From the NCBI GenBank assembly GCA_021780755.1, contig JAJXYF010000039.1, positions 11,529-75,528 on the forward strand: a stretch of DNA of 64,000 nt. The letters are read 5' to 3'. Shown here piece after piece: positions 39,640 through 50,061 of the stretch (its first letter is position 1; the number at the start of each line of letters is the position of its first letter). The notes under the pieces were generated by a model. The model was not told the origin of the DNA. It ran no database searches and saw only the letters and a list, made by a program, of their open reading frames with translations. This DNA comes from Deltaproteobacteria bacterium (GTDB lineage Bacteria > Desulfobacterota > Binatia > Binatales > Binataceae). The position numbers and the translations under genes were made by a program.

Positions 39640-40461
39640 ATGAAGTACGGCATCGCGATTCGCAACATGGGCCCGCAGTCAACCCGCGAAACTATCCGCG
39701 AGTGCGCGCGCGTGGCGGAACAACTCGGCTTCGACGCGCTCTTTGTTTCGGATCATCTCTGCATCCCGCCTGACGATACCGAAGGCTCCGGCGGGCGCTA
39801 CCTCGACGTGCTCGCGACGCTCGCGTATCTGGCCGGCGCGACCGATCGCATCAAACTCGGCGTCTCGGTCCTGGTGCTGCCCTATCGGCCCGCGGTGCTC
39901 ACCGCAAAGCAGGTCGCGACGATCCAGGAACTGTCGGGTGAACGCATGATCGTGGGCGTGGGCGTCGGCTGGATGAAGCGTGAGTTCGAGGCGCTCGGCG
40001 TGGACAAGCGGATGCGCGGGCGCCTCAGCAACGAGACCTTGCGCGTGCTGCGTCATCTGTTCACCACCCAGGCCCAGGCGTATCGCGGCGACCTCGTGAG
40101 CTTTCCGCCATTCGTATTTGAGCCGCGTCCCGCATGTCCGCCCATCTGGATCGGTGGTAATGGCGACCCCGCGATCGCGCGCGTGCTCGAGTTCGGCAGC
40201 GGATGGCATCCGATGCTGCCCGCCGAGAAACTCAAGCCTGCGGTCATCGCGCTCAAGCAAAAGCTCAAGGCGAAGGGTCGCGATGAAATCGAAATCGTCG
40301 TGCGGCGCGGACTGCGTCTCGACGATATCGGGGCGGCGCGCGAGCGCGTCGCGGCCGAACGCGACGCCGGCGCGACCTACTTCATACTCGATCTCGGGCG
40401 CTATCCGAGCGCGCGCGAATTTGCCGCGCAGGCCGAAGCGTTCATGGCGAAGGTTGCCTGA
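39640..40461 (+). CDS. LLM class, probably F420-dependent, oxidoreductase
   Basis: GFDALFVSDH, LGVSVLVLPYR, GVGVGW..EF, PIWIGG. Confidence 0.88.
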   Translation: MKYGIAIRNMGPQSTRETIRECARVAEQLGFDALFVSDHLCIPPDDTEGSGGRYLDVLATLAYLAGATDRIKLGVSVLVLPYRPAVLTAKQVATIQELSGERMIVGVGVGWMKREFEALGVDKRMRGRLSNETLRVLRHLFTTQAQAYRGDLVSFPPFVFEPRPACPPIWIGGNGDPAIARVLEFGSGWHPMLPAEKLKPAVIALKQKLKAKGRDEIEIVVRRGLRLDDIGAARERVAAERDAGATYFILDLGRYPSAREFAAQAEAFMAKVA

Positions 40462-40462
40462 T

Positions 40463-41701
40463 CTAGATTATCCCGTCGCGCTTCAGCGCCGCGAGCTCGC
40501 TGCCGCTCACGCCGAGCATCTCGCCGTAAACGCGGTCGTTGTCGTGGCCGACCGGCACCGATCCGCGCCAGATTTTGCCCGGCGTCTTCGAGAATTTCGG
40601 CACGATCCCGATTCCCTTCACGCGGCCGACCTGCACGTCGTCCCATTCCACGTGCATCTCGCGCGCCTTGTAATGCGGGTCCTCGGCGATGTCCTTGCTG
40701 GTCATGATCGCCGCGCACGGCACCTGCGCCTCGTTCAAGATACGCACGACGTCGGCGGTCGAACGCTCCGCGATCCATCCGCGCAAAATCGCGTCGAATT
40801 CGATCCCTTCGATCGACTCCAGGTTGGTCCGCGCGCTTTGCCATTTCGGATCGGCCGGGTCGAGCCCGATCGCGCCCAACAACCGCGTGTACACTTCGGT
40901 CAACGCGCCCAACGCGATCCAGCCGTCGGCGGTCTCAAAGCTGTCGAGTGGCTGGAAGCCCTGCCCCTTGTTGCCCGAGCGCTCGCGCACGACTTCTTTC
41001 TGAAAATATTCGACCATCGTGCCGCCCAACGTGCGATGGATCGCTTCGAACTGAGCGATATCGATCGACTGCCCAACGCCGTGCGCGCGGGCATAGGTGA
41101 GCGCCGCCAGCGACGACCACATCGTGAACATCGCCGTCATGTAATCGCCGGTCCACGGGGCCGCCCGGGTGGGAGGATTGTCGGGATAGCCGGTCTGGTA
41201 CATGGTGCCGCTGAACGCCTGCCCCACGATATCGTAAGAGGTGCGCCGGATGTACGCCGGATCGCCGTATTGCCCGTAACCCGAGACGTGCGTAATGACC
41301 AGCTTCGGATTGAGCCTGCGCACCGAGTCGTCGTCGAGGCCCCAGCGCGGGTAAGTGCCGGGCTTCGAGCTTTCCATCCAGATGTCGCAAGCCGGAATCA
41401 TTTTCAGGAACAGATCGCGGCCGCGCGGCTTCGACAAATCGAGCGTGACGCAGAGCACGTTGCGCCGCTCCTGGACCCAGTTGGTCGCGACCGGCGCACC
41501 GCCGTCGCGCGACGGCAGCGTAATCCCTAACGTCCGCCAGCCCGCGTCGCCGCCACCCGGCCGTTCGATCTGAATTACCTCGGCCCCCATCTCGGCGGCC
41601 AATTGACCGGCGAACGGCTGCGCGATCAGCGTTCCCGTCGAGATTATGCGCACGCCCTGAAGCGGGCCAAAAGATTCGGGCACCAGCGATTTCGCGGCCA
41701 T
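40463..41701 (-). CDS. CaiB/BaiF family III CoA-transferase
   Basis: GPLQGVRI, GAEVIQIE, LDL, SGYGQYG, SYD, PVGHDN. Confidence 0.9.
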   Translation of the reverse strand: MAAKSLVPESFGPLQGVRIISTGTLIAQPFAGQLAAEMGAEVIQIERPGGGDAGWRTLGITLPSRDGGAPVATNWVQERRNVLCVTLDLSKPRGRDLFLKMIPACDIWMESSKPGTYPRWGLDDDSVRRLNPKLVITHVSGYGQYGDPAYIRRTSYDIVGQAFSGTMYQTGYPDNPPTRAAPWTGDYMTAMFTMWSSLAALTYARAHGVGQSIDIAQFEAIHRTLGGTMVEYFQKEVVRERSGNKGQGFQPLDSFETADGWIALGALTEVYTRLLGAIGLDPADPKWQSARTNLESIEGIEFDAILRGWIAERSTADVVRILNEAQVPCAAIMTSKDIAEDPHYKAREMHVEWDDVQVGRVKGIGIVPKFSKTPGKIWRGSVPVGHDNDRVYGEMLGVSGSELAALKRDGII

Positions 41702-41914
41702 TCGATCTCCTTAATGGGGTTAATGACGCGCCTCCCCGTGGCGCGCATCCACGATCATGCAATGATTGCCGCGCGACGGGCAACGATCAAGGTTCGCGCC
41801 GGCGGCGGGCCGTCGGCAGACGTTTTCCGCGAGCGCGCCGAGGGCTATTATATCCCGCGCCCGACTGCGATTATTGATCTGCATCGACGAATTATGTTTG
41901 AAGGAAATTCCTCA

Positions 41915-43252
41915 ATGAGCGGCTCGATCGATCGGCGCGAGTTGACCTTAAAGGCGCTGGCCGGCCTCCTCGGCGGCGCGATTGGATGGGTGCCGGTCGA
42001 AATCGCCAATCACGGCCATTCGCTGACCGAGGCACCCACCACCGCCCAATACGTCGGCGACCTGGTCTCGATGGCGCTGATGGCGGGCCTCATCGGCGCA
42101 TTGATCCTGGCCACCGAGGACAACTCGCTCCAGTTCAGTCGGCGCGCGCAGTTTCCTTTTGTCGCGCTGGAGGTACCGGCGCAAGCCAAGCGCCGCGCAC
42201 TGCGCGGATTCATCCTGTGCTTTATCCTCGCGATCCCGGCCAATTACTATTCGAACATCGCCTTCGGCGCGATCCTCACTGCCGGTGGATGGGAGGTCAA
42301 CCATCCCGGTTCGCTCTTCTACCTGATTCTCGCGCGCCTCATCGGTTGGACCCTGATGGGCATGATGCTCGGGGTCGGCGTGGGACTCTCCACGCTCTCG
42401 CTGCGCAACGTGGTCAAGGGCGCCGCGGGCGGATGGATCGGCGGCTTTGTCGGCGGACTGGTCTTTGATTTTATCGGTTCGATCACCGAGTCCGGACTGC
42501 CTTCGCGCTTTGTCGCCTTGAGCGCGATCGGCCTTTCCATCGGCCTCTTCATCGGGCTGGTTCAGGAACTGACCAAGAGCGCCTGGCTCGCGGTCGAAGC
42601 GGGACGTTTGCGCGGACGCCAGTATCGTCTCGACGGCGCCACCGCGACCATCGGACGCGCCGAGGAAAATCCCGTCGGGCTCTTCGGCGATCCGGGCGTG
42701 CAGGCGCGTCACGCCATCATTGAGCGACGCGGCGCCGACTACTCGATTCGCAATCTCGCCGTGCAGGAAGGCACCTTCGTCAACGGCAACCGGATCGAGA
42801 CCGTGCCTCTGCATGACGGCGATCGCATCCGCATCAGCAACTACGAAATGAGTTTTCATTCGCGCGCGGGCGCGCACGCGGCCAGCCTCGCGACGGCAAA
42901 TCCGCCCCGCCCCGCCGCTGCGTCCACGATCGCACCATCGGCGAGCGTGGTCGCGAGTACGTCGGCGGGCGCCGCGCCGGCCTATCTCGCCGGACGCAAC
43001 GGTGACCGTTACGCACTGCGCGCCGACGCCGCGACCAGCCTCGGACGCGCGCTCGACAATGATATCGTGGTGACCGACGCCTCCGCCTCGCGCCATCACG
43101 CAACCATCGAGGCCATCAACGGCGGCTTTCGCCTGCGCGATCTCGGCAGCCAGAACGGCACCTTCGTCGGCACCCAGCGGGTTACCGACACGCCGCTCGG
43201 CAACGGCGATACTGTGCGAATTGGCGACGCCGTGTTTACCTTCCATGGCTGA
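41915..43252 (+). CDS. Polytopic membrane protein with two C-terminal FHA domains
   Basis: About 6 Gly-rich TM segments; IGR...RHA...GTFVNG and LGR..DND.....ASRHHA...SQNGTFV. Confidence 0.88.
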   Translation: MSGSIDRRELTLKALAGLLGGAIGWVPVEIANHGHSLTEAPTTAQYVGDLVSMALMAGLIGALILATEDNSLQFSRRAQFPFVALEVPAQAKRRALRGFILCFILAIPANYYSNIAFGAILTAGGWEVNHPGSLFYLILARLIGWTLMGMMLGVGVGLSTLSLRNVVKGAAGGWIGGFVGGLVFDFIGSITESGLPSRFVALSAIGLSIGLFIGLVQELTKSAWLAVEAGRLRGRQYRLDGATATIGRAEENPVGLFGDPGVQARHAIIERRGADYSIRNLAVQEGTFVNGNRIETVPLHDGDRIRISNYEMSFHSRAGAHAASLATANPPRPAAASTIAPSASVVASTSAGAAPAYLAGRNGDRYALRADAATSLGRALDNDIVVTDASASRHHATIEAINGGFRLRDLGSQNGTFVGTQRVTDTPLGNGDTVRIGDAVFTFHG

Positions 43253-43640
43253 TTCGACCATCGAAAGAGCGCGCTATTGCTCGCAATGCGGGCAGCCGGT
43301 GACGGTGATCGACGCGGCCTTCTGCAAGGAATGCGGCGCGCCGCTGCCCGGCACGGTGTGGCTCAGCCATGAAATCACCTGGCGCCCGTTCGTCGCATTT
43401 GCCCTGAGCATCGTTCCGGGCCTCGGCCATTTCTACAAGCGACAGCCCGGGCGCGGCGTGGTCTGGTTCCTCTTCGTGACCTTCATGTACGCTAGCGCGC
43501 CGCCGCTCGGTTGGATCGTGCATCTGATCTGCGCTGTCAACGCGGCCTTCGCCGGCGCGATCAAGGAAGACGCGCTCGCCCGTTCAATCCCCGGCGGCGG
43601 TCCGGGGAGATTATCGGCGACGGCGCGTCCACGATCGTAG
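43245..43640 (+). CDS. Zinc-ribbon + transmembrane protein
   Basis: YCSQCG...FCKECGAPL, then SIVPGLGHFY TM hairpin; overlaps the FHA gene stop. Confidence 0.8.
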   Translation: MADSTIERARYCSQCGQPVTVIDAAFCKECGAPLPGTVWLSHEITWRPFVAFALSIVPGLGHFYKRQPGRGVVWFLFVTFMYASAPPLGWIVHLICAVNAAFAGAIKEDALARSIPGGGPGRLSATARPRS

Positions 43641-43659: not shown

Positions 43660-45312
43660 ATGATCGCGCCCAGCACCATAGTCGGCGGACGCTACCGGGT
43701 CGTCCGATCGCTCGGCGGCGGCGGCATGAAGCTGGTCTATCTGGCGGAGGATTTGCGCCTCGCGGGGCGGCCCTGCGCACTGGCCGAAATGGTCGATAGC
43801 TTCACCAGCCCCGACCTGCAGCAGCAGGCGGTCGCCGCCTTCAATCGCGAGGCCGACATGCTCGCGCAACTCGCCAACGAGCACATCCCCCGCATCTTCG
43901 ATCGCTTCAGCGAGGCCAACCATCACTATCTCGTGATGGAATATATCGACGGCACCACGCTCGAGGACGAACTGCGTGCCCACGGCGGCAAGCTGCCGCC
44001 GGCGCAGGTAATCGAAATCGCATCGCAAATCCTGACCACGCTTGAATATCTGCACAATCTCGATCCGCCGGTGATCTACCGCGACTTGAAGCCGTCGAAC
44101 GTGATGGTCACGCCCGACGGCATGGCGAAGCTCATCGACTTCGGCATCGCGCGCCTTTTCGCACCCCTCAGCAACGCCACCATGATCGGCACGCAGGGCT
44201 ACGCACCGCCCGAACAGTATCGCGGACGCGTCGAGACCCGCTCGGATTTGTACGCGCTGGGCGCCACCATGCATCACGCGCTCTCGGGCCGCGATCCCGC
44301 CGCCGAGCCGCCCTTCAGTTTCCCCTCGCTGCGCAAATTGTGCCCCGACCTCGACCCATCGCTCGGCGCCCTGGTCGATCAGGCGCTGGCCTATGACGTC
44401 GTCAACCGGATGCGCGACGCCACGGATTTCAAGCGCCGGCTGATCGAGATCAAGACCGGCGCAAGTGACGCGTCCAAACCGGCGGGCGCCGCCACAAACC
44501 GATCCGCCGGGCGCCCCCAGCTTCCGCTCCCGCTCGGCAACCCGACCCCGGCCGCCGCCGATGCGGAAGTTCAGGCCGCGGCCGGCGGCCCGGCTCAGGC
44601 GGCCCGTCCGGTGTCCCCCGGCGCGTCCGCCGCGAGTGCCTCGGCGAGTTCCGCGCGAGGGCCGATTTCTCCACCGCCGCCCGCGGCCAGCGCCTCCAGC
44701 CCGACGGTGCTCAGCGTCGGTGCCGAGATCAAGTGTCCGAGTTGCGCCCGCATGATTCCGATCGATTCGCGATTCTGCTCGTACTGCGCCGTCGATTTGC
44801 GCCATTCTATGGCGCCGTTCGAACTCGGTGGGAATGCCGACGCCGAGACCGCCGTGCTCGACGGCCGCCAATGGAACCATCGGACCAGCCGCGGCGGCCG
44901 CGACCGCACGCAAGCGCAATTCGGCGGTAGGCGATCGCGCCGCCATCTGCGCCATCCGCTCCTGCTGATCGTCGCGATCTTCGCGATCTCGTTCATCATC
45001 AGAATGATCATCCTGAACGAAGTCACGCCCGCCGCTCCCGCCGGAGACGAAAGCGGTTCGTCCGCGGCGCCCGGCGCCACCGTGCCCGACGCCGACAGCA
45101 GTGACGCGCGTCTCGCCAACTTGCGCCAGGCGTTGGACAACGCCGGCTATCGCTCGGTTCGCTTTCGCCTCAACGGCAACGTGCTCGAGGTCTGGGGCAC
45201 CGTCCCCGATGAATTTGATCGGGTCAACGTGCAGGCGTTGATCTTTCGCAGCGTCGGCATCGTTTTGCTGCAAGACAACTTGCGCGTCAGCAGCACCTAC
45301 GCCGAGCCCTAG
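43660..45312 (+). CDS. Hanks-type Ser/Thr protein kinase with zinc ribbon, TM and BON-like C-terminus; WNK-like lysine placement
   Basis: LGGGGMKLVY, CALAEM, F.RE, LVMEYI, YRDLKPSN, DFG, GT.GYAPPEQ, SDLYALG; CPSC...FCSYC; TM; C-terminal LEVWGTVP...DNLRV. Confidence 0.92.
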   Translation: MIAPSTIVGGRYRVVRSLGGGGMKLVYLAEDLRLAGRPCALAEMVDSFTSPDLQQQAVAAFNREADMLAQLANEHIPRIFDRFSEANHHYLVMEYIDGTTLEDELRAHGGKLPPAQVIEIASQILTTLEYLHNLDPPVIYRDLKPSNVMVTPDGMAKLIDFGIARLFAPLSNATMIGTQGYAPPEQYRGRVETRSDLYALGATMHHALSGRDPAAEPPFSFPSLRKLCPDLDPSLGALVDQALAYDVVNRMRDATDFKRRLIEIKTGASDASKPAGAATNRSAGRPQLPLPLGNPTPAAADAEVQAAAGGPAQAARPVSPGASAASASASSARGPISPPPPAASASSPTVLSVGAEIKCPSCARMIPIDSRFCSYCAVDLRHSMAPFELGGNADAETAVLDGRQWNHRTSRGGRDRTQAQFGGRRSRRHLRHPLLLIVAIFAISFIIRMIILNEVTPAAPAGDESGSSAAPGATVPDADSSDARLANLRQALDNAGYRSVRFRLNGNVLEVWGTVPDEFDRVNVQALIFRSVGIVLLQDNLRVSSTYAEP

Positions 45313-45449: not shown

Positions 45450-46133
45450 ATGCTGGTTGATTTACACGTCCACACCGCGCTCTCGTCTGACTCCAACGTC
45501 GCGCCCGAGCGATATCTCGAAGCGATCGCGAAAAATACCACACCGCTTGGGGCGATTTGCTTTACCGAGCACCGGCGGTTTCCGGTGGAGGCAGAAATCG
45601 ACGCGCTCTACGCGGAACTTTCCCAGCGCTTCGGCGTGCACATTTTCAAGGGCGTCGAGGCCGACACCAATCTCGGTCATCTGCTGATTTTCGGCGTCAC
45701 GGGCGAATTGCGCCGCCGCTTCGATCTCGATTCGCGCATGCTGCGCGCGGAACATGTGATCGAGGTGGTGCACGGCGAGGGCGGCATCGCGATTCCCGCG
45801 CATCCGTTTCGCGATTCGGGCTACGGCGTGCGCCTCGACGAGCTGCTCGCGAAACTCGGCCCGGCGCTTAGCGCGATCGAAGCCGTCAACGGCCAGAATT
45901 CGGCCGGCCAGAATGACGAAGCGCTCGCGATGGCGGAGAAGCTCGGGCTCACGCCACTCGGCGGCAGTGACGCGCATTTTTCGACCGCCAACTGGTTTCT
46001 GACCTGCGCGACGGAACTTGATCGCGCCGTCGCCAGCGTCGAGGAGCTGTGCGTCGAATTGCGCGCCGGCCGTGCCCGTCCGTATTACTTTGCGCGTGAT
46101 TCCGCGCCGCACCGCCGCGGGCAACAGCAATGA
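45450..46133 (+). CDS. PHP domain metallo-phosphoesterase
   Basis: DLHVHT..SSDS, FTEH, GHLL, AHPFR, GGSDAH. Confidence 0.88.
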   Translation: MLVDLHVHTALSSDSNVAPERYLEAIAKNTTPLGAICFTEHRRFPVEAEIDALYAELSQRFGVHIFKGVEADTNLGHLLIFGVTGELRRRFDLDSRMLRAEHVIEVVHGEGGIAIPAHPFRDSGYGVRLDELLAKLGPALSAIEAVNGQNSAGQNDEALAMAEKLGLTPLGGSDAHFSTANWFLTCATELDRAVASVEELCVELRAGRARPYYFARDSAPHRRGQQQ

Positions 46134-46235: not shown

Positions 46236-47087
46236 ATGAAATTTGGAACCTTCATCACCAGCGTCAAGCCCGAACGAATCGCGACACACGTCCGCGCCGC
46301 CGAGGACATCGGCTTCGAATCGGTATGGATTGGCGAGCACATGATCCTGCCGACGGTGTCCGAATCGAAGTATCCCTACTCGCCCGATGGCCGCTTTCCC
46401 GCGCCGCCCGACGTCCCGTTCCACGACCCGATGATCGCGCTCGGTTATGCCGCCGCGCTGACCACGAAAATCAGGCTCGCGACCGGCATCTTCGTCGTCC
46501 CCCTGCGCAACGCGATCGCCACCGCCAAGGCGGTCGCCTCGCTCGACGTGCTGAGCCATGGCCGCGTGCTCTTCGGCGTCGGCGTGGGCTGGTGGGCGGA
46601 AGAATTCGCGGTGGTGGGCGCGCCGTTTAACGATCGCGCCTTGCGCACGCGCGAGTACCTCGAACTGATGAAGGAGCTGTGGACCAGCGACGAACCGGTT
46701 TATCGCGGCAAGACGATCGCGGTCGAGGGTGTGCGCTTTTATCCCAAGCCGGAGCAAAAGCCGCATCCGCCGATCGTCGTCGGCGGCACCAGCGACCTGG
46801 CGCTCAAGCGCACGGTCCGCTACGGCGACGGATGGTATGGAATCGCGAAGAGCCTCGACGAAGCGCGCACGCTGATTGAACGGCTGCGCGGACTCGAGCG
46901 CGCTGCCAAGCGCGTCAAGCCGGTTGAGATTACGCTGAGTCTGAGGACCGGCCACGCGATCACCCTCGAGGAGGTCAAGCGCCTCGGCGAACTGGGCGTC
47001 GAGCGGGCGCTGGTGGGATTACCGCTGCGCGCGTTCAGCGAGGACGAACTCGCGCGCTTCCATGACGAGGTTATGGCGCGGATGTAG
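46236..47087 (+). CDS. LLM class, probably F420-dependent, oxidoreductase
   Basis: GFESVWIGEH, YPYSPDG, AKAVASLDVLSHGR, GVGVGW..EEF, PKPEQKPHPPI. Confidence 0.9.
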   Translation: MKFGTFITSVKPERIATHVRAAEDIGFESVWIGEHMILPTVSESKYPYSPDGRFPAPPDVPFHDPMIALGYAAALTTKIRLATGIFVVPLRNAIATAKAVASLDVLSHGRVLFGVGVGWWAEEFAVVGAPFNDRALRTREYLELMKELWTSDEPVYRGKTIAVEGVRFYPKPEQKPHPPIVVGGTSDLALKRTVRYGDGWYGIAKSLDEARTLIERLRGLERAAKRVKPVEITLSLRTGHAITLEEVKRLGELGVERALVGLPLRAFSEDELARFHDEVMARM

Positions 47088-47116: not shown

Positions 47117-49189
47117 CTACGAGCTCTCCAGCTCGCGGATGAAGCGCCGGAGATCCGCCGGACGGCCCGCCGCGACGATCAGATCGCCCGGCTTGAGCAC
47201 GCGGTCGGGACCGAGCGGGGCAAATCCGTTTTGTGGGTCGCCGCCATCCTGAACCGCGAGCACACTGACCGCGTAGCGCGCGCGCGGGTCCAGTTGGCGA
47301 ACCGTTTTGCCGCTCGCCCCGGCCGGAATTTTGATTCGCGTGACGCGATATCCGGTGGCCCAGAAGATGCCGCGGTCGCCGGTCTCGTGGGCGGACAAGG
47401 AAACCGTAACGCGATTGAACGCCTGCGATACGTTGCGCCGCGAAATCAGCCCTAGAAACCGTCCGCCGTTGGGATGTTCGACCACCGGAATCTCATCGAG
47501 CGCCTCGTATTCCATCATCTGCGCGGCCTGATCCAGGTTCGATTCCGGCGTCACCACGGGCGGATTGCGGCGGCTCAAATCGAACGCGTTGATCAGCGCA
47601 CCCAGTTCGGTGCCGCTCGCGAGCACCCCCAGCAGGTCGCGCGTGACCACCAGTCCGGCCAGTTCACCGTCGCTGTTGACCACCGGCAGCGTGGCCTGCG
47701 CGGTCTCCCCCGCCATCCGCAGCACATCGGCCAGGGTGGCGTTCTCGCTCAGCACATCGACCTCTCTGTGCATCACCGAGGCGACCGGAAGCTGGGTCAG
47801 GACCATGCGCTCCTTGCCGATCGCGAGCGTCTTGCCCTCGCGGGCGAGCGAATAGGTATCGATCGATTCACTTTCGATCGAGCGCGCGACGACCAGTGCG
47901 GTGATCGTCGCAATCATCGCCGGCAATGCCACGGTGTAATTGAGCTGCGTCATCTCGAACAGCAGGAACAGGGCGGTGAGCGGCGCATGGGTCACCGCGG
48001 CGAGAAAGGCTCCGATCCCGACGAGCGAATACGAACCGTGCGGTCCGGCAATACCCGGTGCGATCAGTCCGAACAATCCGCGAAAGGCGCCGCCGCTCAT
48101 CGCGCCCATAAAAAAGACCGGGCCGAAGACTCCACCTGGCGCGCCGCAATCGAGCGAGACCGCGCTGGCGACGAATTTTGCCACGGTCAGACCAAGCAGC
48201 AGGCCGAGGCCGAGTTCTCCGTTGATTGCGCGATCGATTACCGGGTAGCCGTCGGAAAGATTTTGCGGCAACACGATCGCGATCACGCCGACCCCGGCGA
48301 GGCCGGCCGCGAGCTTCGCCCACTGGGGCATTTTAAGTGCGCGGAAGTAGCGGCCGGTCGCGTGGAAGAACCGGATATAGCCCGCGCCGAGCATGCCGAG
48401 CATCGCGCCCATCAGGCCGTAACTGAACAGTTCCCAGTAGCTCGTGATCAAGAAGGCGGCCGGATGAAAAACGGCACTCGCCTGTCCCATGATAGTCCGC
48501 GAGGTCACGACCGCCGTGAACGTCGCGATCACTACGAGCACCAGGTTGGTGAGGTCGGTCTGGCCCATCAGGACGATTTCCTGTGCGAACATCAGGCCGC
48601 CCATCGGTGCGTTGAAGGTGGTTGCGATACCGGCACCGGCGCCGGCCGCGACCAGCACTTTGGCGCGATCGACCGAAAGCCGGCGCAACTGCGCGACGGC
48701 CGACCCGATCGCGCCGCCGATCTGCGCAATCGGTCCCTCGCGGCCGACCGACGCGCCCGCGCCCAGCGACAGCGCGGCGCCCAGCGCCTTCAGCACGATC
48801 CATCGCCGCTTGATGCGCGCGTGGCCGAGGTTCACCATCTCGAGGAAATTTGGAAAGCCGTAACCGAGCACGTCACCCGGGAAGAAGAAATTCAGGATCA
48901 GAATGGCGGCGCCACCGCTTAACAAAATGATCGGGATGAGAAGGACCGTCGCCGAGCCTTCGCGGATACCCAAGGCATTCCATTCAAGGCCGCGAAAGAC
49001 CCACGAGAAGAACTCGATCAGGCGGCGAAAGCCGAGATTACCGAGCGCCGCCAGGACGCCGACCGCCACCGCGAGCAGAATCTGCTCGAGGTATTCGACC
49101 TGATCGGCGCGCAGTGAAAGCCCCGGCGCATCGACCAGCGGCTTCAGCGGCGCCGTGACTGTGGCGCCCGATACCTTCGCGGGCGGCAT
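47117..49189 (-). CDS. CLC family channel/transporter with CBS pair and TrkA-C domain
   Basis: GREGP, FNAP, GGVFGP, HAPLTA; CBS repeats; C-terminal RCK-like DRVLKPGD; TGATG overlap with the upstream hydrolase. Confidence 0.9.
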   Translation of the reverse strand: MPPAKVSGATVTAPLKPLVDAPGLSLRADQVEYLEQILLAVAVGVLAALGNLGFRRLIEFFSWVFRGLEWNALGIREGSATVLLIPIILLSGGAAILILNFFFPGDVLGYGFPNFLEMVNLGHARIKRRWIVLKALGAALSLGAGASVGREGPIAQIGGAIGSAVAQLRRLSVDRAKVLVAAGAGAGIATTFNAPMGGLMFAQEIVLMGQTDLTNLVLVVIATFTAVVTSRTIMGQASAVFHPAAFLITSYWELFSYGLMGAMLGMLGAGYIRFFHATGRYFRALKMPQWAKLAAGLAGVGVIAIVLPQNLSDGYPVIDRAINGELGLGLLLGLTVAKFVASAVSLDCGAPGGVFGPVFFMGAMSGGAFRGLFGLIAPGIAGPHGSYSLVGIGAFLAAVTHAPLTALFLLFEMTQLNYTVALPAMIATITALVVARSIESESIDTYSLAREGKTLAIGKERMVLTQLPVASVMHREVDVLSENATLADVLRMAGETAQATLPVVNSDGELAGLVVTRDLLGVLASGTELGALINAFDLSRRNPPVVTPESNLDQAAQMMEYEALDEIPVVEHPNGGRFLGLISRRNVSQAFNRVTVSLSAHETGDRGIFWATGYRVTRIKIPAGASGKTVRQLDPRARYAVSVLAVQDGGDPQNGFAPLGPDRVLKPGDLIVAAGRPADLRRFIRELESS

Positions 49190-50061
49190 CAGAGCTGCAG
49201 GAATCGATGGACGACGGTGAGAAATTCGGTGATCTGATCGTGATGGACCCAATGGCCCGCGTTCTTGATCGTCACCAGCTCCGCCGAACGAAACGCGTCG
49301 AGGCGCCCGTCGCGCTCCCAATCGCCGGCCCACGACGAATCGCCGCGCACCAGCAGGGTGCGACAACGGATTCGCGACCAGATCTCCATCGCGTCCTTGA
49401 GATTGAACAGGTACGGCGAGGTCGCGCGCGTATAGTTGTCGTACTTCCAGGAGAAGGTGCCGTTCTCATTGCGCCGCACGCCGTAGATGGTGAGATGGTG
49501 CGCCATCTGCTCGCTCAAGTGCGGATTGGCCTCGCGCATCCGCGCCATCGCCTGCTCGATGGTCGAGTACTCGCGCGGTTTGCGCTGGGCGAGCGCGCGC
49601 ATGTCGGTGACCCAGCTTTCCATCCGCTCGTAGGCGGGGGTCTCACGGAGCATCGCGCCCGGAGGTCCGAGGCCCTCGATCGCGATCATCGCCTTGACCG
49701 CCTCGGGAAATACGCCCGCGCGCTGCAGCACGACGCCGGCGCCGAGCGAATGGCCGATGAGCGTCACCGGGCCGGTCGGCTCGAGCGCGTTCAGGAGCTG
49801 GCCGAGGTCGAGCACGTGATCGGTTATCGAGTACGCGCCGCCGATAGCCCAGTCGGAATCGCCATGTCCGCGGAGGTCGGGCGCGACGATATGAAAATGA
49901 TCGCGCAGGTCGAGCGCGACGGCGTCCCAGTTGCGCGCATGGTCGCGGCCGCCGTGCACGAGGATCGCGAGCGGCTGGTCGTGATTACCCCAGTCCACGT
50001 AATGCAGTTTGAGGCGCTGGGAGTAGAAGAAATGCGACGTTGGCCCGATAATATCCGGCAT
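49189..50061 (-). CDS. Alpha/beta hydrolase
   Basis: LVHGG, DLRGHGDS, GHSLG nucleophile, AGHWVH. Confidence 0.9.
   Translation of the reverse strand: MPDIIGPTSHFFYSQRLKLHYVDWGNHDQPLAILVHGGRDHARNWDAVALDLRDHFHIVAPDLRGHGDSDWAIGGAYSITDHVLDLGQLLNALEPTGPVTLIGHSLGAGVVLQRAGVFPEAVKAMIAIEGLGPPGAMLRETPAYERMESWVTDMRALAQRKPREYSTIEQAMARMREANPHLSEQMAHHLTIYGVRRNENGTFSWKYDNYTRATSPYLFNLKDAMEIWSRIRCRTLLVRGDSSWAGDWERDGRLDAFRSAELVTIKNAGHWVHHDQITEFLTVVHRFLQL

Follow-up and report, generated by a model that had tools for sequence, protein, structure and literature searches.

In canonical protein kinases, a lysine on strand beta3 holds ATP by its alpha and beta phosphates and pairs with a glutamate on helix alphaC. 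Kinase textbooks and surveys treat the WNK ('with no lysine') kinases as the only functional protein-kinase family that is without this beta3 residue (PMC1821047). In WNK1, the role is taken by a lysine located at the third glycine of the glycine-rich loop (G-loop), and this lysine is required for catalysis (PMC1821047; PMC10211241). Kannan et al. 2007 assign the WNK lysine to position 55 of PKA, which corresponds to that third glycine (PMC1821047). Here we describe a bacterial Ser/Thr kinase gene whose product has the same layout. It is located at positions 43660 to 45312 of a 64,000-nucleotide stretch of DNA (the window) from a Deltaproteobacteria bacterium of the family Binataceae (NCBI GenBank assembly GCA_021780755.1, contig JAJXYF010000039.1, positions 11,529 to 75,528 of the forward strand). 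The exchange is fixed in every sampled member of this family, and the kinase probably remains an active enzyme.

There are two further known examples in which another residue offsets the loss of the lysine at position 72, as is proposed below for residue K24 of the window kinase. POMK (SGK196) shows the same lysine migration and uses a G-loop/beta2 lysine; in WNK1 and in POMK alike, the beta2 lysine is described as needed for activity, and POMK also works when its lysine is returned to beta3 (PMC10211241). In the CAK-chloro subfamily, the compensating residue is Arg55 (PMC1821047). POMK differs from the window kinase in being without the canonical HRD and DFG motifs and the alphaC glutamate, and in having a sugar substrate (PMC10211241), whereas CAK-chloro belongs to a choline/aminoglycoside kinase-like group and carries Phe in place of E91 (PMC1821047). 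The likeness to WNK has the following parts, as the sources describe them: a lysine at the third G-loop glycine, a residue other than lysine on beta3, and a retained alphaC glutamate together with the HRD and DFG aspartates (PMC1821047; PMC12599244). However, the window kinase has Ala rather than Cys on beta3 and DFG rather than DLG, and it is a membrane protein encoded in a bacterial FHA operon.

Among bacterial kinases, PknB, StkP and PknA provide the best matches in both sequence and fold. They share with the window kinase the G-loop methionine, an Arg-Asp (RD) catalytic loop, the DFG and APE motifs, and an overall arrangement in which an N-terminal kinase is followed by a single transmembrane (TM) helix and an extracellular sensor. 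The window kinase is unlike them in its beta3 alanine, its G-loop lysine, its juxtamembrane zinc ribbon and its BON-like sensor, which stands where these kinases have PASTA domains. The NCBIfam model PknB_PASTA_kin scores 197.6 bits on the window kinase, far under its cut-off of 450.

An atlas from 2025 that covers some 300,000 bacterial Ser/Thr kinases (bSTKs) and a companion review define seven pseudokinase families, namely ActPs1-3, GLW, CP1, DYD and DLHK, in which the VAIK lysine is wholly or partly lost and of which several are membrane-associated (bioRxiv 10.1101/2025.01.12.632604; PMC12599244). Their descriptions give Arg, Thr or Leu/Trp in place of the lysine, along with loss of the HRD aspartate, the DFG aspartate and/or the alphaC glutamate. 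By these descriptions the window kinase is unlike all seven, as it has Ala on beta3 and keeps the other three residues intact. A G-loop lysine combined with an intact HRD/DFG/Glu core is found in none of the seven families as described, the supplementary family tables lying outside this comparison. Likewise, our literature search returned no report of a bacterial WNK-like kinase, although the supplementary tables of the atlas, which lay outside the search, might list such proteins. An earlier note on this DNA, made from the letters alone, had been aware of no described bacterial family of this kind, and the search gave none.

The gene and the active-site residues under discussion are listed here. 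Pairs such as K/A or G/K denote the residues at positions 24 and 42 of the window kinase, and the K/A representatives are the cluster representatives described further below.

43660..45312, plus strand: gene for the WNK-layout Ser/Thr kinase, 550 amino acids; an open reading frame (ORF) with its ATG at 43660 and a Pfam Pkinase match.
43660..44499, plus strand: kinase domain, residues 1-280; AlphaFold2 (AF2) model with a predicted local distance difference test score (pLDDT) of 94.2 and a predicted template modelling score (pTM) of 0.90; best Foldseek matches PknB, PknA and Stk1.
43729..43731, plus strand: AAG codon of K24, the lysine at the third G-loop glycine and the proposed relocated ATP-anchoring lysine; from the raw sequence and alignment.
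43783..43785, plus strand: GCC codon of A42, the alanine at the position of the beta3 VAIK lysine; from the raw sequence and alignment.
43849..43851, plus strand: codon of E64, the alphaC glutamate (FNRE); kept in 59/60 K/A representatives.
44077..44100, plus strand: catalytic loop YRDLKPSN, residues 140-147, of RD type; seen in the sequence, the representatives and the locus alignments.
44137..44145, plus strand: DFG motif, residues 160-162, with Phe rather than the Leu of the WNK DLG; F161 is present in 57/58 K/A representatives.

The product of this gene is a PknB-like Hanks-type Ser/Thr kinase with a WNK-type layout. In the ORF translation, the 550-residue protein begins with MIAPSTIVGGRYRVVRSLGGGGMKLVYLAEDLRLAGRPCALAEM. 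Pfam Pkinase (PF00069) matches residues 12-215 with 121.2 bits (E = 6.7e-35), well beyond its gathering cut-off of 31.7, and the AF2 model of residues 1-280 forms a complete bilobal kinase fold. When the protein is aligned by phmmer to the solved structure of StkP, LGGGGMKLVY falls on IGRGGMADVY and CALAEM falls on VAVKVL. Because of this alignment, K24 is assigned to the third position of GxGxxG and A42 to the position of the VAIK lysine. The beta3 lysine, which is a hallmark of Hanks-type kinases, is therefore replaced. All other catalytic residues are in place, including the alphaC glutamate (E64), the HRD aspartate and asparagine (D142 and N147), the DFG aspartate (D160) and the APE glutamate (E185, within an APPE motif at residues 182-185). 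The earlier note had claimed exactly these features, that is, Ala encoded by GCC at 43783, Lys encoded by AAG at 43729, and intact FNRE, YRDLKPSN, DFG and APPE motifs. The raw DNA and the StkP alignment agree with the first two, and the motifs are present in both the ORF and its homologs.

The two exchanged residues are strictly retained among close relatives. A search of 5.8 billion proteins provides close homologs, of which 120 are listed with 52-88% identity. Among these 120, the named ones are labelled either Candidatus Binataceae or 'Deltaproteobacteria' metagenome-assembled genome (MAG). GGGGMK.VY together with CALAE is found in 118/118 of those with an N-terminus, the other two being N-terminally truncated, and thus no homolog in this N-terminally complete set keeps the beta3 lysine or is without K24.

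A wider view comes from a HMMER scan covering all of 1.84 billion cluster representatives at 50% identity, from which the best 150 were taken. These contain 209 kinase domains, which were realigned to the query, and 187 of them span positions 24 and 42. Among the 187 domains, the states are K/A (61), K/S (1), G/K (77), S/K (13), A/K (12) and K/K (1). The sole K/K case sits in a degenerate first domain, and multi-domain proteins account for the remaining, scattered states. When only domains with a score of 230 bits or more are counted, there are 59 K/A, one K/S and 47 with Gly, Ser or Ala at position 24 and Lys at position 42, with no mixed state. The earlier note had proposed examining whether K24 varies together with a non-lysine at position 42, and at the boundary with the nearest canonical kinases this covariation is complete. 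In a column-by-column comparison of 57 K/A sequences with 45 near G/K sequences, columns 24 and 42 alone separate the two groups fully.

Elsewhere in the active site the K/A representatives resemble ordinary kinases. E64, R141, D142 and K144 are each present in 59/60; N147, D160 and G162 are each present in 58/58; and E185 is present in 57/58. The same catalytic residues are retained in 48/48 canonical sister kinases, which speaks against a decaying pseudokinase. T174, located in the activation loop, is retained in 56/58 K/A representatives. As a separate observation, position 60, which corresponds to the arginine of the alphaC 'RF-motif', is Ala in 43/57 K/A sequences and Arg in 10/45 near G/K sequences. 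The bSTK atlas describes this arginine as typical of bacterial kinases (bioRxiv 10.1101/2025.01.12.632604).

The genome to which the window belongs, as contig C19, measures 3.9 Mb and has a completeness of 94.8%. There are five kinase-like ORFs in this genome, and the K/A layout is found in the window kinase only. A strict DNA pattern (GGMK.VY...A.AE) matches in 4/4 other family genomes and in 0/396 others of the phylum sample, with a reversed control that gives 0. A lax pattern for the lysine-bearing G-loop (GxG[G/A]MKxV[Y/F]) matches in 49/49 other family genomes representing 19 genera; three of these genomes (G474, G590 and G595) are unpublished, and the count without them is 46/46. Within the class but outside the family, 2/251 genomes match the lax pattern, and its reversed control matches a single genome. 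The two out-of-family matches (G625 and G425) are attributed to chance, as no kinase is located there (phmmer gives no hit in loci L134 and L135).

Thirty loci were fetched by the lax G-loop pattern, and they come from 29 other genomes and the window's own (one, L091, is from the unpublished G474). K24, A42, E64, YRDLKPSN and DFG are present in 30/30, and APPE is present in 29/30, with SPPE in the remaining one. In five complete genomes that represent other families of this class, the query finds neither a positional nor a close ortholog, and the best kinases there, seen in 3/5, are only 32-37% identical. A related-locus search of genome contigs is uninformative on the range of the K/A layout, since all 80 loci among the matches listed are canonical G/K only. 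The K/A layout is thus fixed and family-wide in Binataceae, in every sampled member, with some paralogous expansion. The organisms of this family are uncultured, and a look for RNA runs that contain the locus listed none.

At the DNA level, there are 41 distinct versions of the stretch from the G-loop to beta3 in related genomes. Both residues are kept in all of them and their codons vary synonymously, with AAG (29) and AAA (12) for K24, and GCC (34), GCG (4), GCT (2) and GCA (1) for A42. Purifying selection acts on the K24/A42 exchange. Because the window comes from a MAG, in which a single-read error might occur, we considered sequencing or assembly error, or else the random decay of a dying gene. 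Nothing was found in favour of this explanation. It is contradicted by the presence of both residues in the 118 close homologs, the 30 loci and 60 clusters at 50% identity, and by the synonymous variation at both codons in an ORF whose catalytic core is otherwise intact. We consider this explanation excluded.

The K/A kinases appear to have arisen among bacterial kinases rather than from WNK. In a phmmer comparison with solved structures, the window kinase matches StkP (E = 3.5e-38), Staphylococcus aureus PknB (1.8e-32) and Mycobacterium tuberculosis PknB (3e-31) much better than WNK3 (1.4e-18). Foldseek with the kinase-domain model similarly places PknB, PknA and Stk1 at the top (E of about 1e-20) and WNK3 at rank 38-40. 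By sequence, the K/A clade has bacterial G/K kinases as its nearest neighbours and sits among them; these include paralogs from the window's own genome. Within the protein, all Pfam matches at E <= 0.01 are to the kinase superfamily or to zinc ribbons, and a WNK accessory domain is not among them. Orthology to WNK, or horizontal transfer from eukaryotes, was rejected because bacterial kinases are far closer in both sequence and fold. Since the protein is so much closer to PknB and StkP than to WNK, the WNK-like layout is apparently convergent and independent of the WNK lineage, in line with the earlier proposal that this kinase had reached the WNK solution by its own route.

A tree was built from 112 kinase domains after alignment columns 24 and 42 had been deleted. 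It includes 57 K/A domains, 50 near G/K domains and five distant G/K domains as outgroup. Of the rows, 93 are hits from the 150 representatives that score 230 bits or more, have one kinase domain and are complete at the N-terminus; to these the window kinase domain, eight close homologs, three paralogs from the window's genome and seven locus ORFs were added. In a quick free tree, the near G/K kinases form one clade with a Shimodaira-Hasegawa-like approximate likelihood ratio test (SH-aLRT) value of 97, and the K/A rows form a grade that needs two changes. However, constraining the K/A rows to one clade improves on the quick free tree by 34.18 log-likelihood units (approximately unbiased test, p-AU 0.812), and the grade is therefore not taken as real. 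One switch on the stem of the clade is parsimonious because all other kinases are G/K. Thus, a single origin of the K/A layout inside bacterial kinases, on the stem of the clade, best explains the alignment data.

The function of the exchange is a matter of probability. We favour the view that the protein is an active RD-type kinase that uses K24 in place of the beta3 lysine and signals via the FHA protein of its operon, and we judge this to be probable though well short of certain. In this scheme, K24 would reach from beta2 into the active site and replace the role of the lost beta3 lysine, and the enzyme would stay an active, activation-loop-regulated (RD-type) Ser/Thr kinase. It may then autophosphorylate one or more activation-loop threonines, with T174 as a candidate, and subsequently phosphorylate or recruit the FHA membrane protein encoded two genes upstream. 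The BON domain would perhaps sense some signal at the envelope.

Several observations weigh against activity. Some pseudokinases keep the HRD and DFG aspartates, and because of this an intact core is no proof of turnover. A few K/A paralogs have decayed, as exemplified by P0201 (CRGIKPSN), P0183 (His for E64) and P0129 (DVG). In addition, no recognisable PP2C-type phosphatase is found in the operon with Pfam and NCBIfam.

One alternative is that the protein is a conserved pseudokinase or nucleotide-binding scaffold, which binds ATP (perhaps via K24) or nothing and transfers no phosphate. Such a protein could signal by conformation or by scaffolding, for instance by keeping the FHA protein at the membrane. 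Bacterial pseudokinase families are annotated by their loss of the VAIK lysine (bioRxiv 10.1101/2025.01.12.632604; PMC12599244), an enzyme and a constrained ATP-binding switch look alike by conservation alone, and some K/A paralogs are without D142 or E64. However, the remaining catalytic residues are each retained in 57-59 of 58-60 K/A representatives, much as in the canonical sisters. The two fully discriminating columns also make up the only compensating pair that is known to preserve catalysis, as it does in WNK and POMK (PMC1821047; PMC10211241). Moreover, FHA partners need a source of phospho-threonine, and the operon holds no kinase other than this one. On balance we regard an inactive scaffold as unlikely, though it is an explanation that deserves to be kept in mind.

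Beyond the kinase core, the order of elements is kinase domain, low-complexity linker, zinc ribbon, Arg-rich stretch, TM helix and BON-like domain, of which three can be delimited.

44725..44799, plus strand: cytoplasmic zinc ribbon, residues 356-380, CPxC...CxxC; from Pfam zinc-ribbon families, invariant cysteines and AF2 strands.
44953..45021, plus strand: single TM helix, about residues 432-454, with an Arg-rich stretch before it; helix 92-114 of the AF2 segment model.
45091..45288, plus strand: extracytoplasmic BON-like domain, about residues 478-543, of alpha-beta-beta-alpha-beta order; AF2 pLDDT above 90, and Foldseek.

Several Pfam zinc-ribbon families match residues 356-380 with E-values from 2e-5 to 1e-2, which are under their cut-offs. 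Across 49 aligned orthologs none of the four cysteines varies, and short strands are present here in the AF2 model. For the C-terminal domain, the best Foldseek match is OsmY (E = 6.7e-4), followed at weaker E-values by DolP, Kbp and BonA. Pfam BON (PF04972, cut-off 27) gives no hit at E <= 1 on residues 460-550 of the window kinase. The same model scores 28.9 bits on ortholog P0110 and 25.4 bits on P0083. The best explanation is that the product is a single-pass membrane receptor kinase with a cytoplasmic kinase domain and a periplasmic BON-like domain. The Pfam, AF2 and Foldseek results accordingly support the receptor layout that had been proposed from the sequence, with its zinc ribbon, TM helix and BON-like outer domain.

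The kinase gene is third in an apparent conserved operon. The genes around it that are relevant here are the following.

41603..43252, plus strand: membrane protein with two C-terminal FHA domains; Pfam FHA at 3.3e-35 in two stretches, NCBIfam FhaB/FipA-like at 8.7e-28.
43221..43640, plus strand: 139-residue zinc-ribbon and TM2/DUF6677-like membrane protein; Pfam matches all under gathering cut-offs.
45450..46133, plus strand: PHP-domain metallo-phosphoesterase; Pfam PHP and PHP_C.
47117..49366, minus strand: chloride channel of the ClC type that also carries two CBS domains and a TrkA-C domain; its gene and the kinase operon are convergent; Voltage_CLC at 3.8e-78.

Neighbours were located by tblastn at 18 loci from 18 genomes and 16 genera. 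The FHA gene, the zinc-ribbon gene and the kinase gene are adjacent in 18/18, 16/18 and 18/18 loci, respectively, with the FHA gene always upstream of the kinase gene. The zinc-ribbon gene overlaps the end of the FHA gene and stops 20 nucleotides ahead of the kinase start. FHA domains read phospho-threonine, and the co-encoding of an FHA-domain protein with the kinase across species resembles FHA-coupled kinase modules. The window kinase is the only kinase in the operon. The PHP gene is located downstream of the kinase gene in 13/18 loci, and its product scores 66 bits with an NCBIfam CehA/McbA-type domain, under the cut-off of 80. This phosphoesterase may be a partner in the kinase module.

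The longest FHA ORF begins at a TTG codon, and its first part (41603-41701) overlaps the 5' end of a divergent CoA-transferase gene (40463-41701, minus strand). Because of this overlap, the true FHA start is probably downstream of 41603. The tblastn matches of the FHA protein to its orthologs cover about 440-600 amino acids. The operon is flanked by the CoA-transferase gene in 16/18 loci and by orf49207 in 15/18 loci. Luciferase-like monooxygenase genes are located on both sides (39640-40461 and 46236-47087, both on the plus strand). The CoA-transferase gene, an enoyl-CoA hydratase gene and a PfkB and SIS fusion nearby make this an ordinary metabolic context.

The earlier note had also brought in chloride sensing, for which WNK kinases are known. 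The lysine placement of WNK may permit chloride binding, according to a review, and the chloride pocket of WNK1 uses Leu369 of the DLG motif, where the L369F change is reported to disrupt inhibition by chloride and to raise autophosphorylation (PMC7606576). The K/A family has Phe at the position of this leucine in 57/58 sequences, and therefore the WNK pocket, as described, is not reproduced and the background does not carry over. With DFG in the place of DLG, WNK-type chloride sensing by the Binataceae kinase is unlikely.

Nevertheless, the neighbourhood provides a reason to consider a related idea, which is a special case of an active kinase. Perhaps loss of the beta3 lysine frees an anion site, such that chloride inhibits the kinase and ion homoeostasis is controlled in a WNK-like anion or osmotic sensor, with the neighbouring ClC channel as a possible target. 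The ClC gene is the only ClC match in the genome and is located 1.8 kb downstream of the kinase stop. It is found 2.5-6.5 kb downstream of the kinase start in 15/18 loci, and it is still adjacent in the three of those 15 loci that are without intervening genes. For the ectodomain, the osmoregulator OsmY gives the best structural match, and the hits include Kbp, which binds K+. The possible chloride binding of the WNK lysine placement (PMC7606576) would fit as well.

However, the Phe of the K/A family stands where the WNK1 pocket uses Leu369, and the corresponding L369F change raises WNK1 autophosphorylation (PMC7606576). The ClC gene is on the opposite strand and is no better conserved than the CoA-transferase gene (16/18) or orf49207 (15/18), and no ClC gene lies beside the K/A paralogs found elsewhere. 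Since unrelated metabolic genes on the flanks show equal conservation, the adjacency is accounted for by ordinary synteny at the family level; it is kept as a lead and was rejected as evidence of function. An anion sensor of this sort therefore seems improbable to us. The broader proposal that Binataceae possess an analogue of the WNK pathway is just as doubtful; here a BON receptor kinase would report ionic or osmotic state and tune ion transport, including that by the ClC channel, via its FHA partner. If this were true, the 'with-no-lysine' layout would be a recurrent route to ion-sensing kinases and not a eukaryotic oddity.

The K/A layout is also found in paralogs of the kinase. Five family genomes give two or three lax-pattern matches. 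Four additional copies, taken from four of the five, are all K/A paralogs, with lengths of 444-800 amino acids. One K/A cluster is named Candidatus Binatus sp. In the K/A paralogs located elsewhere, no FHA, zinc-ribbon, PHP, CoA-transferase or ClC neighbours are found. The paralogs P0126, P0130, P0174 and L136-L139 have differing C-terminal parts, which the sources name as formylglycine-generating-enzyme/sulfatase-modifying or TPR, and one such paralog has an N-terminal extension of about 237 amino acids. At L139 (contig C44 of G643), a 125-residue ORF located just upstream of an 800-residue K/A kinase starts like a K/A kinase with GGGGMKQVY but departs from this pattern afterwards (CRLC...), and it probably represents a duplicate that was truncated or a fragment left by a frameshift.

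In the window's own genome, the closest paralog is an 802-residue ORF on contig C17, which has the canonical GGGGMGMVY and CAIKEM. It is part of a group of three tandem kinase-like genes at about 62689-69050 (plus strand), wherein the canonical 608- and 802-residue genes flank a degenerate one of 708 residues. The latter protein has VNDICPDS for HRD, GLD for DFG and Val for the alphaC glutamate, and by these motifs it looks like a true pseudokinase. A trio of the same type recurs in two other genomes, at L001 and L002 (Candidatus Binatus soli).

Judged by its sequences, the Binataceae clade represents a second, independent case of the same residue swap as in WNK, fixed within a clade of PknB-like kinases. 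Closely related canonical sisters also exist, one of which is encoded in the window's own genome, and together this amounts to a natural experiment on the relocated lysine. It raises the question of whether a relocated lysine is a general and accessible solution, and by which path a kinase crosses between the two layouts. Likewise, the benefit of the exchange could lie in anion sensitivity, altered nucleotide handling or inhibitor resistance. Finally, annotation based on motifs will mislabel the K/A clade as pseudokinases.

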